Assembly: GCA_048938105.1 (NCBI GenBank)
Contig: JBHLMN010000004.1
Coordinates: forward strand, 224,001-288,000
Direction of reading: 5' to 3'
Origin: Promethearchaeota archaeon
Lineage (GTDB): Archaea; Asgardarchaeota; Heimdallarchaeia; Hodarchaeales; Hodarchaeaceae
DNA length: 64,000 nt
Every line of letters starts with the position of its first letter. Position 1 is the first letter of the stretch. Below, in pieces: positions 53,443 through 59,043 of this stretch. Position numbers and translations under genes: made by a program. The notes beneath the pieces were generated by a model that had not been told where the DNA came from, did no database searches, and was given only the letters and a program-made list of their open reading frames with translations.

Positions 53443-53691
53443 ATGAGTCAGAGTATAGTCGATAGAATATGGGCTATAATAATAAATGAAGGATATCTTA
53501 AAGGGTTGACAAGGTCACCTCAAGGAAAGATATTCGTAATAAAGCATCCAAACACTAATCCAGCGCTAACAATAATGGATAGTCAAGATTATTTCGATAG
53601 AGGAAATGGAGAGATGTTTATTGGGAGAGAACTCCCTAATAAGGATATATTAATAGAGTTAATTCAAGAACACCAGCGATCAAGCTTATAA
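53443..53691 (+). CDS. Hypothetical protein
   Basis: 82-aa ORF with globular composition. Confidence 0.5.
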   Translation: MSQSIVDRIWAIIINEGYLKGLTRSPQGKIFVIKHPNTNPALTIMDSQDYFDRGNGEMFIGRELPNKDILIELIQEHQRSSL

Positions 53692-53706: not shown

Positions 53707-53982
53707 TTATTTGTCTGGTTTTTCTGTTCGGGAAATCTTGAAAACAACGGGGCGTTTATAGTCAGGACAGCAGTTAGAATGGCTATCAGGGGTATCGAAC
53801 CATGACATTTTTCCTCCACTCTGAATAATACGTATAGTAGGGAAGATGGAATGAAATGCAGAGGGACAAATCTTCCCTCTATCTTCAGGATAATTAAACA
53901 CCTCTCCAATTTTGTGTCCAGCAGGACATCTGCCTTCTTCAAGAATATTAGTTACTTCAATTTTAATTTCATAATTTGGCAC
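53707..53982 (-). CDS. TIGR04076-like small Cys protein
   Basis: G.CPAGHKIG, ICPSAF, CCPD..RPVVFKI. Confidence 0.85.
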   Translation of the reverse strand: MPNYEIKIEVTNILEEGRCPAGHKIGEVFNYPEDRGKICPSAFHSIFPTIRIIQSGGKMSWFDTPDSHSNCCPDYKRPVVFKISRTEKPDK

Positions 53983-54129: not shown

Positions 54130-54795
54130 ATGCTTGATCTCTTATACGGTGTAGTATTGTTAATTGAAGTGGTCCTTGCTGTGATTATAGGTTTGTTTAT
54201 CATAAAGAGAGATAAGTCACAAACATTAAACCAAGTATTCTTATTGGTTATGCTCTCTTTTTCAGGTTATCTTTTTTTTGAATCGATAATCTATTTACTT
54301 GGTATCGAAGATCTATCAACAGTCGATCTCCTACGAGATCTTAGTGTTTTCTTTTCCACTGCTGCAGTAATTCTTTTAGTGTTTTCGGCATTAATTGTAC
54401 AATATGGAGACATAATAGTTCAGAGAAAGATAAATTTAGTGATTGGGTTCATTGTTCTAGTTTTTCTAGTAATCATTGGGATTCCTTTTGATTCAGCAAG
54501 AATTATTGATAATTATGTTATTTTTGAACAAGCGGATCCGCAATTCGGCATCATTGGAAAAACAGCTTTACTTTTCATTCCAATACTAGGAATTTTCTTT
54601 TCGATGTTTCAATATTTGAGAATTAGACAATCTAGCGAAGATGCTGTATTACGACAGAAATTATTCAGACTAGCTCTTGGATTATTTTTAATCACAATTG
54701 GTATCGCATATTTTGCAATTTTCCCAGAGTTCCGCTATCCAGGACATATTGCATACATTGCTGGTTTACTAAGCCTATTTTGGGCATTCAAATGA
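54130..54795 (+). CDS. Stand-alone 7-TM membrane protein (HisKA_7TM-like sensor domain)
   Basis: Seven hydrophobic segments; LNQVF motif after TM1; no cytoplasmic output domain. Confidence 0.7.
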   Translation: MLDLLYGVVLLIEVVLAVIIGLFIIKRDKSQTLNQVFLLVMLSFSGYLFFESIIYLLGIEDLSTVDLLRDLSVFFSTAAVILLVFSALIVQYGDIIVQRKINLVIGFIVLVFLVIIGIPFDSARIIDNYVIFEQADPQFGIIGKTALLFIPILGIFFSMFQYLRIRQSSEDAVLRQKLFRLALGLFLITIGIAYFAIFPEFRYPGHIAYIAGLLSLFWAFK

Positions 54796-54863
54796 TTAAA
54801 GAGTTTTTCGAATTCTCGCATTATTAAGTTTGTTTTATAGGATTCGCCATGGTATGAGTAAAG

Positions 54864-55448
54864 ATGACATATCCAACAGGGAATAAGGGATCATACTTCA
54901 AGGTTTGTCTAATTGGAGATGGGGGAGTAGGAAAAACCTCTCTACGTGAACGAGTTCTAGGAGAAGATTTTGAAAGTACCTATTTATTGACCATAGGAGC
55001 CGATTTTGCCATCTATCAGGCTGATATTGATGGACACATATATAAATTCCAAATCTGGGATTTATCTGGACAACAGCGGTTTGACATTGTAAGAGCAGTT
55101 TATTACAGGGGTTCACATGGAGCTATCCTCGTCTTTGATCAGACCCGTCCAGAATCATTTTCTAATCTGGAGAATTGGAGAAAAGAGCTTTTTACTCACG
55201 TTAATCGGAGAGTCCCCTTTATTTTATTAGGTAATAAATGTGATCTGAGGAGTAAGATTGATCGGAATGCATTAAATGAGTTCATTGAGAAATCTGAGAA
55301 GGAGTTCTCATATGCAGGTAATCCATTTTCAATTCCATATCTTGACACATCTGCTCGTACAGGTCACAATGTGAATGAAGCTTTCGAGACATTAATTATG
55401 GCTATTAGGAATTTCGTTATAAACAATGTTAAAAAGACAAAGCATTAA
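54864..55448 (+). CDS. Rab-like small GTPase
   Basis: GDGGVGKTS, TIGADF, WDLSGQQRF, YYRG, GNKCD, TSA; no C-terminal Cys motif. Confidence 0.93.
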   Translation: MTYPTGNKGSYFKVCLIGDGGVGKTSLRERVLGEDFESTYLLTIGADFAIYQADIDGHIYKFQIWDLSGQQRFDIVRAVYYRGSHGAILVFDQTRPESFSNLENWRKELFTHVNRRVPFILLGNKCDLRSKIDRNALNEFIEKSEKEFSYAGNPFSIPYLDTSARTGHNVNEAFETLIMAIRNFVINNVKKTKH

Positions 55449-55469
55449 CTAACCAAAGGTTTAGATAAA

Positions 55470-55964
55470 ATGTCAAAAGAATTAAAAGACAAGCTCCTAA
55501 AAGAGTTTCCAGGTAAAATGGAAAATGAACAAGCATTCATCATGCAATTCATAATGAAAGAAGCTCAACAAGGTAGGAAACCACCATCTAAAGATGATAT
55601 TGATGAAAGCATCAAAAAAATGGTTAAAAAAGGTATTTTCGAAAAGAAGGGTCCTCTATTAATTTTGAGGGCCTCCAAACCGCTTGTGACAATATCTGAA
55701 GAGGAGGAGGAGGAGGAAGAAGAGACTCCAATTGTTTCTCCCAATTTGATAACAGGGAATTTTACTGAGAGTCAAAAGATTATTCTTAATGCTTTTCAAG
55801 GGAAATACGAGAATCGTTCAGCTATTATCATGAATGTTACAATGACAGAGTTATCTAAGGGAAAAAGACCTCCAGAAAGAGGAGTCCTGGAAAAAAGTAT
55901 TGAAGAATTAATAGAAAAAGGAGCATTGGAATTAAAAGGGGATCTATTAATTAAAAAACTTTAA
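55470..55964 (+). CDS. Tandem winged-helix-like protein with poly-Glu linker
   Basis: Two ~65-aa repeats (F.GK.EN..A.IM...G..PP....SI..L..KG..E.KG.LLI). Confidence 0.75.
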   Translation: MSKELKDKLLKEFPGKMENEQAFIMQFIMKEAQQGRKPPSKDDIDESIKKMVKKGIFEKKGPLLILRASKPLVTISEEEEEEEEETPIVSPNLITGNFTESQKIILNAFQGKYENRSAIIMNVTMTELSKGKRPPERGVLEKSIEELIEKGALELKGDLLIKKL

Positions 55965-56114
55965 AATCATTTTAATGTTTGTACTGACTTGACAATTACT
56001 TGATTATTTTCTGTAGGGAAGGATTAGAGTATATATGATAATATTCCTTGTGATATAAGTTGGTTTATCAGCTTAAAAGGTTTCTAGGATTTGTTTTATG
56101 CTCATCCCAAAAGT

Positions 56115-56200
56115 GTTCACAAAATCGAACACCCCGTTCTAAAGTTCAGACATGCTGTACTAGTTTTAGAATAGGCCGTTCGACTGTATAGGTATTTAAA
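56115..56200 (+). promoter_or_regulatory. Four 21-bp-phased GTTC(N8)GAAC-like boxes followed by a TATA box
   Basis: GTTC/GTAC at 56115, 56136, 56157, 56178; TTTAAA at 56195-56200. Confidence 0.6.
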
Positions 56201-56252: not shown

Positions 56253-58454
56253 ATGAGAATAAATGGGAAATTAAGAAAGTACGGCCTCTTTTCCTCTATT
56301 GGAGGAGGTTTGGCAGCGATTCTAATTTTTATCCTTGCAATAGGCCTTTTTAATCCATTAAGTGTTCCAATGAATATTCCAGATATGGATACACCTTCTT
56401 TACTCGACGGAACAGCCTTAACTTACCAGATAAAAAATAGTCTTCAAACAGAATTTGGGAGTTATATTCCCCAAAATTTGTCTTATGATCCTAAAGTGGT
56501 TCCCACTCAAATACAATCGAATCTTGCTAATGTTGATTTACAAGGATTAAACATTCAATCTGATGTAAAAAAAGACTTAGAAAAATATGGTTTTGTCTTA
56601 GTTGATGAGGGTTTTGAAGATATTTATGAAATCTATCCACGTTTAGAATATCCAAAATTCGTAACCACAGATCTTTGTCTCCATGCGTATCATGTATTAT
56701 ATGATATTAGTTTACGAATATTAGAAGGAACCTACTTTAATGATGATTTCGAAATAATGTTACAAGAATTAAGAACTGCACAAATAGCTTTAAGTGGTAA
56801 GGTTACTGAAAGCAACGTTAATGATGCTCTAAACAAGAATATTGCTTATCTCACTGTCATGCTCTATTTAATCGATAATACTACTACTACGATTCCCAAA
56901 CAGGTTGAAGGTCTTTTTCTTTCAGAATTAGCAAAAATAAAAGCAGAAAAAAGAAATATATCAACTATTTTTGGATATGAAGAGGATTACACTCAGTATA
57001 AAGTACGAGGACACTATACACGAAATACTATCTTATCTAATTATTTCAAAGCTATGATGTATGCTGGTAGGATGGGATTTTTATTACAAAGTCCTTTTGG
57101 TGATATACAAATGGGTATCGATCACACTCGAATGGCTATGTTGCTTTTATCTTCCTTCAATGTTACTATTGGATCTGAAACTGTCTGGGATTACTGGGAT
57201 CGGGTATATCAACCAACAGCGTTTTATGTTGGTGCTAGCGATGATTTAACACCTATTGAGTATTACCAGATTTGGAAGATGTTTAATTTCCCTGGAGGAG
57301 ATCTTCTAGCTAGCGATGAGTTAATACTAGACATGATTAACGAGGCTAAAACTTATCGAAAACCGCAAATAAATTCCATGTTCATTTCTGATGCATATGA
57401 TCATGAGAATGTTACTCATGGATTTAGACTCATGGGTCAAAGATTTATTCCTGACTCATATATTTTCCAACAGTTGGTACATAATAAAGTAATAGGGCGT
57501 TATTTTCCTAATGGGCTAGACGTATTTTCTGTTTTTGGTAGTCCCAGAGCAAAATATCACCTCCAATCAGAGAATGAAAGTTATTCTGACTATAGTTCAC
57601 AGATTATTAAACTTCGAGATGAATTTTCTAATTTAACGGACTATGATTGGACACAAAACTTGTATTGGTTGTGGCTTTATTCATTGTTTCCATTGTTACA
57701 CCCAGCAAATGAGGGTTATCCTGGTTTTATGCGTAGTGATGCTTGGTTAGACAAAGCATTAATGACTGTACTGGCTTCCTGGGCCGAATTACGTCATGAT
57801 ACAATTCTCTATGCCAAACAATCTTACACCTATAAATCCGCAATAGCTGAACCCCTAAAAGGATATGTTGAACCCTATCCTAAAGTTTATGCACGATTAG
57901 CAACATTAGTCCGTTTGATGGAAGATGGGCTAGAGGAACGTGGGTTAATCATTGAAGGCTTTAGTTACAAACTTGATATTCTTGCAACTAAATTTAATCG
58001 TTTAGTTGAGATTAGTATCAAAGAACTTGAGAATGAGCCATTAAACGATAGCGATCTTTTTTTCATTAATAACTTTGGAGAAGAACTTGCCTCTATTGCT
58101 AGTTTTCATGATCCAAGCGCAAAACCATACGTTAGTGAAGCTGATGATCGAATGGCTATTATCGCGGATGTTCACACCGATATAAACTCTGGAAGAGTGC
58201 TGGAAGTAGGTACAGGCAATCCTTACGTTATTTATGTTATTGTACAAGATCATAATGGGAAATTATTCTTAACTCGCGGAGGTGTTTTTTCCTATTATGA
58301 ATTCAAACAACCAATGACCAATCGCCTAAATGATGAAGAATGGCATAAATTACTAGATACTAATCCTCCCTCATTGCCTGAATGGGTCTCCAATTTATTA
58401 ACCATATATTCGAGTGAAACTGTTTTAAATGCGATTGCTCTTAAAGAAGATTAA
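56253..58454 (+). CDS. DUF3160 domain protein with N-terminal TM anchor
   Basis: FVTTD..LH.YH, DYTQYKVRGHYT, MGQRFIPDSY, SWAELRHDTILYAKQS, GYVEP, IADVHT. Confidence 0.92.
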   Translation: MRINGKLRKYGLFSSIGGGLAAILIFILAIGLFNPLSVPMNIPDMDTPSLLDGTALTYQIKNSLQTEFGSYIPQNLSYDPKVVPTQIQSNLANVDLQGLNIQSDVKKDLEKYGFVLVDEGFEDIYEIYPRLEYPKFVTTDLCLHAYHVLYDISLRILEGTYFNDDFEIMLQELRTAQIALSGKVTESNVNDALNKNIAYLTVMLYLIDNTTTTIPKQVEGLFLSELAKIKAEKRNISTIFGYEEDYTQYKVRGHYTRNTILSNYFKAMMYAGRMGFLLQSPFGDIQMGIDHTRMAMLLLSSFNVTIGSETVWDYWDRVYQPTAFYVGASDDLTPIEYYQIWKMFNFPGGDLLASDELILDMINEAKTYRKPQINSMFISDAYDHENVTHGFRLMGQRFIPDSYIFQQLVHNKVIGRYFPNGLDVFSVFGSPRAKYHLQSENESYSDYSSQIIKLRDEFSNLTDYDWTQNLYWLWLYSLFPLLHPANEGYPGFMRSDAWLDKALMTVLASWAELRHDTILYAKQSYTYKSAIAEPLKGYVEPYPKVYARLATLVRLMEDGLEERGLIIEGFSYKLDILATKFNRLVEISIKELENEPLNDSDLFFINNFGEELASIASFHDPSAKPYVSEADDRMAIIADVHTDINSGRVLEVGTGNPYVIYVIVQDHNGKLFLTRGGVFSYYEFKQPMTNRLNDEEWHKLLDTNPPSLPEWVSNLLTIYSSETVLNAIALKED

Positions 58455-58587: not shown

Positions 58588-59043
58588 TTGGAAGCTATAG
58601 TAATGGAAGAACATTCAGACGAATTACTGCAAGGTAAAACCATGAAAATTTACTGGTTTTTGCTTACTCATGGTGAAAGTGGTATTCGTGAAATAAAACG
58701 TCATCTGAAGATTGCTTCGCCATCTACAGTCTCTTATCACATGAACAAGCTCGTTGAGGCGGGTTTGGTCTCAAAATCAACAGCAGAGAAATATATTGTA
58801 GAAGAAACAGTAAAATCAGGGATCTTTGGCCTTTATATTAAGATTGGTACACGTATGATTCCAAGAATGCTGTTTTATATATCATTTTTCACAATCGGCT
58901 GTTTTTTGTATTTATTAGTCATACTTAATCGAGGAACTGTAATAATACACACAGAAGATTTCCTTTTTATTTTCTTTTTAGTAAGTGGAATCATTTTCTT
59001 TAGTTATGAAACTTACCGTATTTGGACAATGAAACCTCTTTGA
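58588..59043 (+). CDS. Winged-helix regulator with two C-terminal TM helices
   Basis: SGIREIKRHLKIASPSTVSYHMNKLVEAGLV followed by 2 TM. Confidence 0.85.
   Translation: MEAIVMEEHSDELLQGKTMKIYWFLLTHGESGIREIKRHLKIASPSTVSYHMNKLVEAGLVSKSTAEKYIVEETVKSGIFGLYIKIGTRMIPRMLFYISFFTIGCFLYLLVILNRGTVIIHTEDFLFIFFLVSGIIFFSYETYRIWTMKPL

Follow-up and report, generated by a model that had tools for sequence, protein, structure and literature searches.

A seven-helix membrane protein, a Rab-like GTPase and a tandem winged-helix protein encoded side by side in a Hodarchaeales archaeon do not form an obligate receptor-GTPase module

Introduction

In prokaryotic gene pairs of the MglA-MglB type, the gene for a small Ras-like GTPase lies beside the gene for its regulator. 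Seven-helix sensors are represented by HisKA_7TM (PF16927), the N-terminal sensor region of histidine kinases, whilst two winged-helix (wH) domains per chain are found in the cullins (WHA-WHB), in the ESCRT-II subunits and in the KITE proteins (Nse1/Nse3). Asgard archaea, the closest archaeal relatives of the eukaryotes, contain dozens of Ras-superfamily GTPases. The Rab-like proteins among them have been described as lacking a C-terminal Cys (Tran et al. 2024, PMC10933270). The present analysis concerns three adjacent genes, encoding a seven-transmembrane (7TM) protein, a Rab-like GTPase and a protein with two wH domains, which are found within a 64,000-nucleotide stretch of DNA, hereafter the window, from a Promethearchaeota archaeon of the family Hodarchaeaceae (assembly GCA_048938105.1, contig JBHLMN010000004.1, positions 224,001 to 288,000).

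A 7TM gene beside the gene for a Rab-like GTPase in such an organism resembles a proto-system of G-protein-coupled receptor (GPCR) and G protein. A sequence-only reading of the window had indeed proposed that the GTPase may be recruited or activated at the membrane by the 7TM protein, with the pair of winged helices as the effector; a literature search on links between 7TM proteins or GPCRs and GTPases in Asgard archaea found nothing specific. Comparison with related loci leads to the rejection of the view that the three genes form an obligate receptor-GTPase module. The explanation that is favoured here, with a probability of about 45%, is that they represent a lineage-specific, loose and probably co-transcribed cluster, whose older core would consist of the Rab-like GTPase and an orphan tandem-wH partner and in which the 7TM gene would be a facultative neighbour.

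The GTPase and wH genes resemble an MglA-MglB locus in that a gene for a small soluble GTPase is followed, after a short gap and on the same strand, by one for a small soluble protein, but the candidate partner is a tandem winged helix rather than a roadblock/LC7 fold and the pairing is not strict. The GTPase shares with other Asgard Rab-like proteins, such as Thor-Rab (PMC10933270), a Ras/Rab core, the Rab switch and interswitch motifs and the lack of a C-terminal Cys extension, and differs from them in belonging to a fast-evolving, genus-restricted clade whose genes often precede a tandem-wH gene. The 7TM protein has the same seven-helix fold as HisKA_7TM but, unlike the HisKA_7TM kinases, has no output domain, escapes the Pfam model and forms part of a small, separate family. 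With GPCR-heterotrimeric G protein systems the locus has in common the arrangement of the seven helices, the predicted N-out/C-in topology and a GTPase encoded nearby; the 7TM protein belongs to no GPCR sequence family, however, and has short cytoplasmic loops and no C-terminal tail, the GTPase is not a G-alpha protein and the linkage is not conserved. Like the cullins, the ESCRT-II subunits and the KITE proteins, the wH protein has two wH domains per chain, although these are held on a disordered acidic linker instead of being packed together and all of its sequence matches to these families fall below threshold, whilst the winged helices of transcription factors and of ORC/Cdc6 score as well as cullin WHB.

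The GTPase and winged-helix genes

All three genes lie on the forward strand. The 7TM gene (54130..54795) is an open reading frame (ORF) of 221 aa and is separated by a spacer of 68 bp (54796..54863) from the GTPase gene (54864..55448, 194 aa), which is followed after a further 21 bp by the tandem wH gene (55470..55964, 164 aa). The source assembly, labelled G000 below, is 5.85 Mb in size and 99% complete, with the window corresponding to C27:224001-288000.

The GTPase matches the Pfam Ras family (PF00071) with an E-value of 6.2e-44, whilst its score for the Pfam G-alpha family, 12.7 bits, is under the cut-off of 48.8. The motifs G1 (GDGGVGKT), G2 (T43), G3 (WDLSGQ), G4 (NKCD) and G5 (TSA) do not vary among the orthologs, and the patterns GxxxxGKT, T43, WDxxGQ, NKxD and TSA hold throughout the 25 sequences that were compared. 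The protein carries the Rab-type signatures IGADF, RF and YYRGS and its catalytic Gln70 is intact. A C-terminal Cys is absent from all 25 of the orthologs or near relatives, as would be expected from Tran et al. (2024), and Gly2 is absent from the protein as well. With all of its catalytic motifs in place and no lipid anchor, the protein would act as a soluble nucleotide switch.

The genome of G000 contains at least 57 Ras-family small GTPase genes at E<=1e-10, so that a single GTPase adjacency is unremarkable and only its recurrence has weight. Several of these genes stand in tandem with one another, for example at C6:74011-75506, C2:36053-37203 and C38:100882-101943. Those GTPases that adjoin a wH gene fall into one clade of 48 tips (support 0.95), which is set apart from a conserved 'Rab family' paralog of 182-185 aa and also includes solo GTPases such as P0138.

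The wH protein is built from an N-terminal domain (wH-N, residues 1-66), a disordered acidic linker with nine Glu (residues 69-93) and a C-terminal domain (wH-C, residues 100-162). The two halves share 42% identity over 57 aa (E 5e-16), and DSSP analysis of the AlphaFold2 model finds the H1-S1-H2-H3-S2-S3 winged-helix topology in both. Mildly basic domains (isoelectric points of 9.1-9.6), each with a neutral to acidic third helix, flank an acidic linker. The protein thus appears to be a pair of equivalent, mildly basic winged helices tethered to each other by a flexible acidic segment. The features listed by the sequence-only reading for this part of the locus are borne out throughout: the ORF coordinates give three co-oriented genes spaced by 68 and 21 bp, the Pfam search and the ortholog alignment give a GTPase with the full G1-G5 set, Rab signatures and no prenylation Cys, and the self-alignment together with the model gives two homologous wH-like halves joined by a Glu9 linker.

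Many solved wH domains match those of the protein with Z-scores of 8-10 and a root-mean-square deviation (rmsd) of 1.3-2.8 A, and the winged helices of cullin WHB, ORC/Cdc6, MecI/BlaI, Fur and RPA32C do so about equally. Taken singly, the domains are matched best by cullin WHB, with an rmsd of 2.0 A over 64-68 residues, an identity of 22-25% and Z-scores of 9.2-9.3. The Pfam family Cullin_Nedd8 scores the protein at 16.7 bits, below its cut-off of 36.9, and no other wH family (ESCRT-II, ScpB/KITE, ArsR/MarR) exceeds its Pfam threshold. A profile search of the PDB revealed no meaningful sequence relative among solved structures, and a language-model atlas search returned unnamed clusters only, all below 0.9. 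DEP, ScpB and Vps25, which are winged helices linked to GTPases or receptors, were considered as possible identities and rejected: none of them appeared in the Pfam scan, DEP and ScpB were absent among the listed rows of the fold search, and ESCRT-II chains were found there weakly, with E-values of 0.016-0.06. The protein may bind either proteins or DNA, given its charge pattern and the equally good match to winged helices of both kinds.

The wH gene is single-copy; it was found in 11 of 21 genomes belonging to one genus, and searches of other genera did not detect it. The comparison of its surroundings covered about 20 related loci, all within one Hodarchaeales genus, with the arrangements of ACFFC6, ACFFDT and ACXADY being read from locus tags, and for ACFFC6 also from the length of its contig, and not from directly seen loci. 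A GTPase gene immediately followed by the wH gene was found at 10 of these loci (G000, L050, ENA-14125, G009, G020, G016, G001, G006 and L048, with ACFFC6 inferred), in every case on the same strand with a gap of 0-90 bp, and the pair is seen down to a wH identity of 47-54%. It occurs in two different downstream contexts, the one consisting of DUF3160/ArsR genes and the other of a convergent gene of about 375 aa, which is annotated as Peptidase_M48 in L048 only. The order GTPase then wH is the only link that outlasts a change of the flanking genes. Prediction of a complex between the GTPase (with GTP and Mg) and the wH protein gave an ipSAE of 0.01 in both runs, a value that is counted neither for nor against binding.

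A divergent Hodarchaeales contig (L046 2016-4480, L047 208-2672) contains a wH homolog (47% identity) two genes downstream of, and on the same strand as, a gene for a Gtr1/RagA-like GTPase (288 aa); an AP-endonuclease-2 gene separates the two.

Gene order and gene loss among relatives

The intact order 7TM-GTPase-wH was seen directly at three loci and inferred at one more of the roughly 20. Besides G000 these are L050 and ENA contig 14125, where the spacer between the 7TM and GTPase genes measures 32 and 54 bp, respectively, and probably ACFFC6. In G003, G012, G014 and L051, and to judge by locus tags in ACFFDT and ACXADY, the 7TM gene is followed directly by the wH gene and the GTPase is absent, leaving 7TM-wH gaps of 24-80 bp. 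The genome G011 has a GTPase pseudogene between the two (L035, G011:C17:21725-22270), in which an in-frame TAA occupies the K61 position and NKxD has become NKSG, and which forms a long branch in the GTPase tree. The reverse situation, GTPase-wH with the 7TM gene absent, holds in G009, G020, G016, G001, G006 and L048, and at G015, L049 and L046/L047 the wH gene adjoins neither of the other two. No GTPase ortholog was found elsewhere in G003, G012 or G014, the best match being a 61% paralog that is also present in G009 and G011. At L051 the 7TM stop and the wH start appear to overlap by 4 nt, an overlap that was discounted as probably an over-extended start call, with a conserved Met lying 8 residues further in.

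A tree of the flanking aminotransferase and DUF3160 genes together with the wH gene groups G000, which has all three genes, with G003, which has no GTPase, at 0.995, and groups G014, which has no GTPase, with G009, which has no 7TM gene, at 1.0; the 7TM protein tree agrees with this picture. Because the trees pair genomes that differ in gene content, the ancestor of the subclade formed by G000, G003, G009, G011, G012 and G014 had all three genes, two of which were afterwards lost independently: the GTPase at least three times, with one further pseudogenisation, and the 7TM gene at least once, whilst the wH gene was always kept.

Outside this subclade the 7TM gene is found in other company. The 7TM homologs P0017, P0021 and P0022 (61-66% identity) lie in unrelated gene contexts, and in GCA_048885365.1 the 7TM and wH genes are on separate contigs with unrelated neighbours. 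At 15 loci of more distant 7TM paralogs neither a GTPase nor a wH gene lies within 1.5 kb; the neighbours are instead YhbY/CRM, DUF6171-like or bactofilin genes. In the genus g5 (loci L008, L010, L013, L018 and L020) the paralogs are 250-280 aa long and a YhbY/CRM-domain gene of 93-99 aa regularly follows about 170-190 bp downstream on the same strand.

The three-gene order is therefore not a conserved gene module beyond local synteny. The sequence-only reading had named a synteny survey as its check and loss of the gene order in relatives as a refutation in advance, and its mechanistic claim, recruitment or activation of the GTPase by the 7TM protein, fails because the order is not conserved: the GTPase has been lost beside a kept 7TM gene, the 7TM gene has been lost in G009 and the divergent 7TM homologs are unlinked. 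The comparative data indicate that a coupling of 7TM protein and GTPase has not been maintained by selection, and the locus should consequently not be cited as a proto GPCR-G protein system without biochemical evidence.

The seven-transmembrane protein

The hydropathy profile of the 7TM protein displays six clear hydrophobic segments and a short C-terminal one. The AlphaFold2 model, made with 18 homologs in the alignment, has a mean confidence (pLDDT) of 90.5 and a pTM of 0.88 and contains seven helices (residues 2-27, 32-56, 62-92, 100-120, 140-168, 172-197 and 203-220), with a beta-hairpin at residues 122-133 in the loop that joins helices 4 and 5. The chain ends with helix 7 and the cytoplasmic loops are short. 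The N-out/C-in topology is predicted from the distribution of Lys and Arg. Of the conserved polar residues, R69, D70, D121 and H206 lie on the outer side, and the loop that joins helices 5 and 6 in the cytoplasm contains R166, S168, S169, D171 and K177. No kinase or cyclase domain is present, and scans against Pfam (E<=1) and NCBIfam gave no match at all, including none to PF16927 or to any 7tm_* family.

The fold is nevertheless that of HisKA_7TM. In a fold search of the Atlas, the model matches clusters that carry PF16927 with TM-scores of 0.80-0.83 and an rmsd of 2.8-2.9 A over 210-218 residues; these clusters comprise histidine kinases, stand-alone proteins of 240-255 aa and one form fused to a GerE helix-turn-helix (HTH) domain. 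An hhalign comparison of the 7TM family with the HisKA_7TM domains of kinases from the same genus gave a probability of 85.8% and an E-value of 5e-6 over 174 columns covering helices 1-6, which would amount to weak homology, and 2 of the 58 family members show weak PF16927 matches (best E 6.5e-4). Among 1.8 billion representatives, a profile search retrieved no more than 68 clusters at E<=1e-3, nearly all of which are stand-alone proteins of 220-280 aa, two having an N-terminal DUF7282. GPCRs were also matched: VIA-align gave its best alignment with the adhesion GPCR ADGRL3 (Z 17.0, rmsd 3.3 A, 203 residues) and Z-scores of 14-16 with many further GPCR classes, whilst the Foldseek matches to GPCRs were weaker (E 1e-4, TM-score 0.5-0.6).

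The gene thus encodes a stand-alone protein that is a divergent representative of the HisKA_7TM-like folds and that by sequence appears to lie outside PF16927 itself; the protein would be of the sensor type. The model and the domain scans agree with the initial description of seven helices without a kinase or cyclase output, and the Atlas fold match, the GPCR alignment and the hhalign result uphold that of a stand-alone, HisKA_7TM-like and receptor-shaped protein. The accompanying statement that fusion to a kinase is the normal state of HisKA_7TM domains holds in part, since kinase-fused clusters do exist, but so do the stand-alone and GerE-fused ones.

The same genome also encodes two true HisKA_7TM histidine kinases, of 603 and 609 aa, as a tandem pair (G000:C49:94272-96887; L052 and L053), which the PF16927 model scores at E 1e-47 and 1e-51. 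Such kinases are present in 11 of 13 other genomes of the genus and in 0 of 26 genomes of the other genera of the class.

Competing explanations

The favoured explanation would run as follows. The GTPase and the wH protein would form the older core, in which, to judge solely from the gene pairing, the wH protein is most likely a binding partner of the GTPase and would act as its effector, regulator or adaptor. One subclade of the genus probably acquired the 7TM gene at this locus in its common ancestor, and the independent losses of the 7TM and GTPase genes in different lineages would have followed, with the wH gene staying in place; co-transcription of the cluster is likely. Several observations weigh against this. 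The wH gene is without an adjoining GTPase at G015, L049 and L046/L047, the same-clade GTPase P0138 stands alone, and the equal match to DNA-binding and protein-binding winged helices means that a DNA-binding role independent of the GTPase is possible. Moreover, the aminotransferase, acetyltransferase, EamA and DUF3160 genes keep their order over an equal distance and all of the data come from one genus, so that the adjacency of GTPase and wH genes may be inherited synteny only. Taken to its end, this last point would make the three genes functionally unrelated, held together by shared ancestry and closely spaced as a consequence of a compact genome. The entire neighbourhood is indeed syntenic over the same genomes, for each of the three genes there are loci that lack the other two, and with so many Ras-family GTPases about 2% of genes would adjoin one by chance. 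For the cultured Lokiarchaeon MK-D1, furthermore, Tran et al. (2024, PMC10933270) report that small GTPase genes as a rule do not share an operon with roadblock, longin or TRAPPC3 genes. A purely passive association is nonetheless considered unlikely, though it has to be taken seriously, in that the GTPase-wH pair is retained where the wH proteins are 47-54% identical and where the flanking genes have changed, and in that the same strand and the 0-90 bp gaps found in every case are typical of co-transcription.

The remaining alternatives give the 7TM protein a larger part. It could form a sensor-output pair with the tandem-wH protein, as a split analogue of HisKA_7TM-HTH fusions, of which the GerE-fused Atlas cluster is an instance, with the GTPase as an older, alternative source of input that can be dispensed with where the 7TM sensor is present. 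All of the GTPase losses, at least three, and the pseudogene are in lineages whose 7TM gene immediately precedes the wH gene, with the short 7TM-wH gaps that remain after the loss, and the sister genomes G014 (7TM-wH) and G009 (GTPase-wH) display complementary losses. The 7TM homologs outside the subclade never adjoin a wH gene, however, the cytoplasmic loop motif is equally conserved in unlinked homologs and is thus not partner-specific, the wH gene is also found with neither neighbour and the apparent overlap at L051 is probably an annotation error, all of which renders such a pair improbable. A related possibility, rated slightly lower still, is that the wH protein is a shared output or adaptor that takes its input from either the Rab-like GTPase without a lipid anchor or the GPCR-fold 7TM sensor. 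If true, the complementary losses, G014 having kept the 7TM gene and G009 the GTPase, would reflect interchangeable inputs, and the locus would supply a Rab-like GTPase of Asgard archaea with a partner encoded in its own operon, which is rare, and would also link a 7TM sensor to a wH protein in the cytoplasm. The original model, in which the 7TM protein acts on the GTPase in the manner of a GPCR on its G protein, can draw on the GPCR-like helix arrangement of the model (ADGRL3), on the predicted topology with its conserved helix 5-6 loop and on the recurrence of the intact triple in L050, ENA-14125 and probably ACFFC6. It is regarded as very improbable: the GTPase has repeatedly been lost with the 7TM gene kept and the 7TM gene lost with the GTPase kept, divergent 7TM homologs and paralogs never adjoin a GTPase gene, the GTPase is of the Ras/Rab type and not a G-alpha protein, and the 7TM model offers short cytoplasmic loops and no C-terminal tail. 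A recurrent GTPase-wH pair, even if loose, is a cheap and testable lead to a partner for one of the many Asgard GTPases, and a modestly useful one in view of the findings on MK-D1.

Transcription signals and flanking genes

A divergent gene upstream leaves 147 bp for a promoter ahead of the 7TM gene, and downstream of the wH gene there are 288 bp of intergenic DNA with a TATA-like element; by their sequence these two intervals fit a single transcription unit. The 21-bp spacer between the GTPase and wH genes has no room for internal promoter elements. The 7TM-GTPase spacer contains a T5 run right after the stop codon and TTTTATA about 27 nt ahead of the GTPase ATG, which may represent a terminator and an internal promoter.

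The divergent upstream gene (53707-53982, reverse strand) encodes a Cys-rich protein of 91 aa belonging to the TIGR04076 family (E 2e-21), and is found at the same place in G003, G012, G011 and L051 and not in G014 or G009. Further upstream lies a small ORF on the forward strand (53443-53691, 82 aa) without a family match, which is 58-76% identical in eight related loci. It was considered as a fourth conserved member of the cluster and rejected because the small upstream ORFs belong to two unrelated families, the G000 group having one of about 80 aa, and G016, G001 and L048 a Cys-rich one of about 87 aa that precedes the GTPase-wH pair.

On the other side of the cluster, a perfect palindrome, GTGTTC-N8-GAACAC (56113-56132), is located just upstream of a TATA-like element and ahead of the DUF3160 gene (56253-58454). 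This gene is followed by one for an ArsR-type winged HTH protein with C-terminal transmembrane helices (58588-59043), and the order DUF3160 then ArsR is conserved in G003, G014, G011 and G009.

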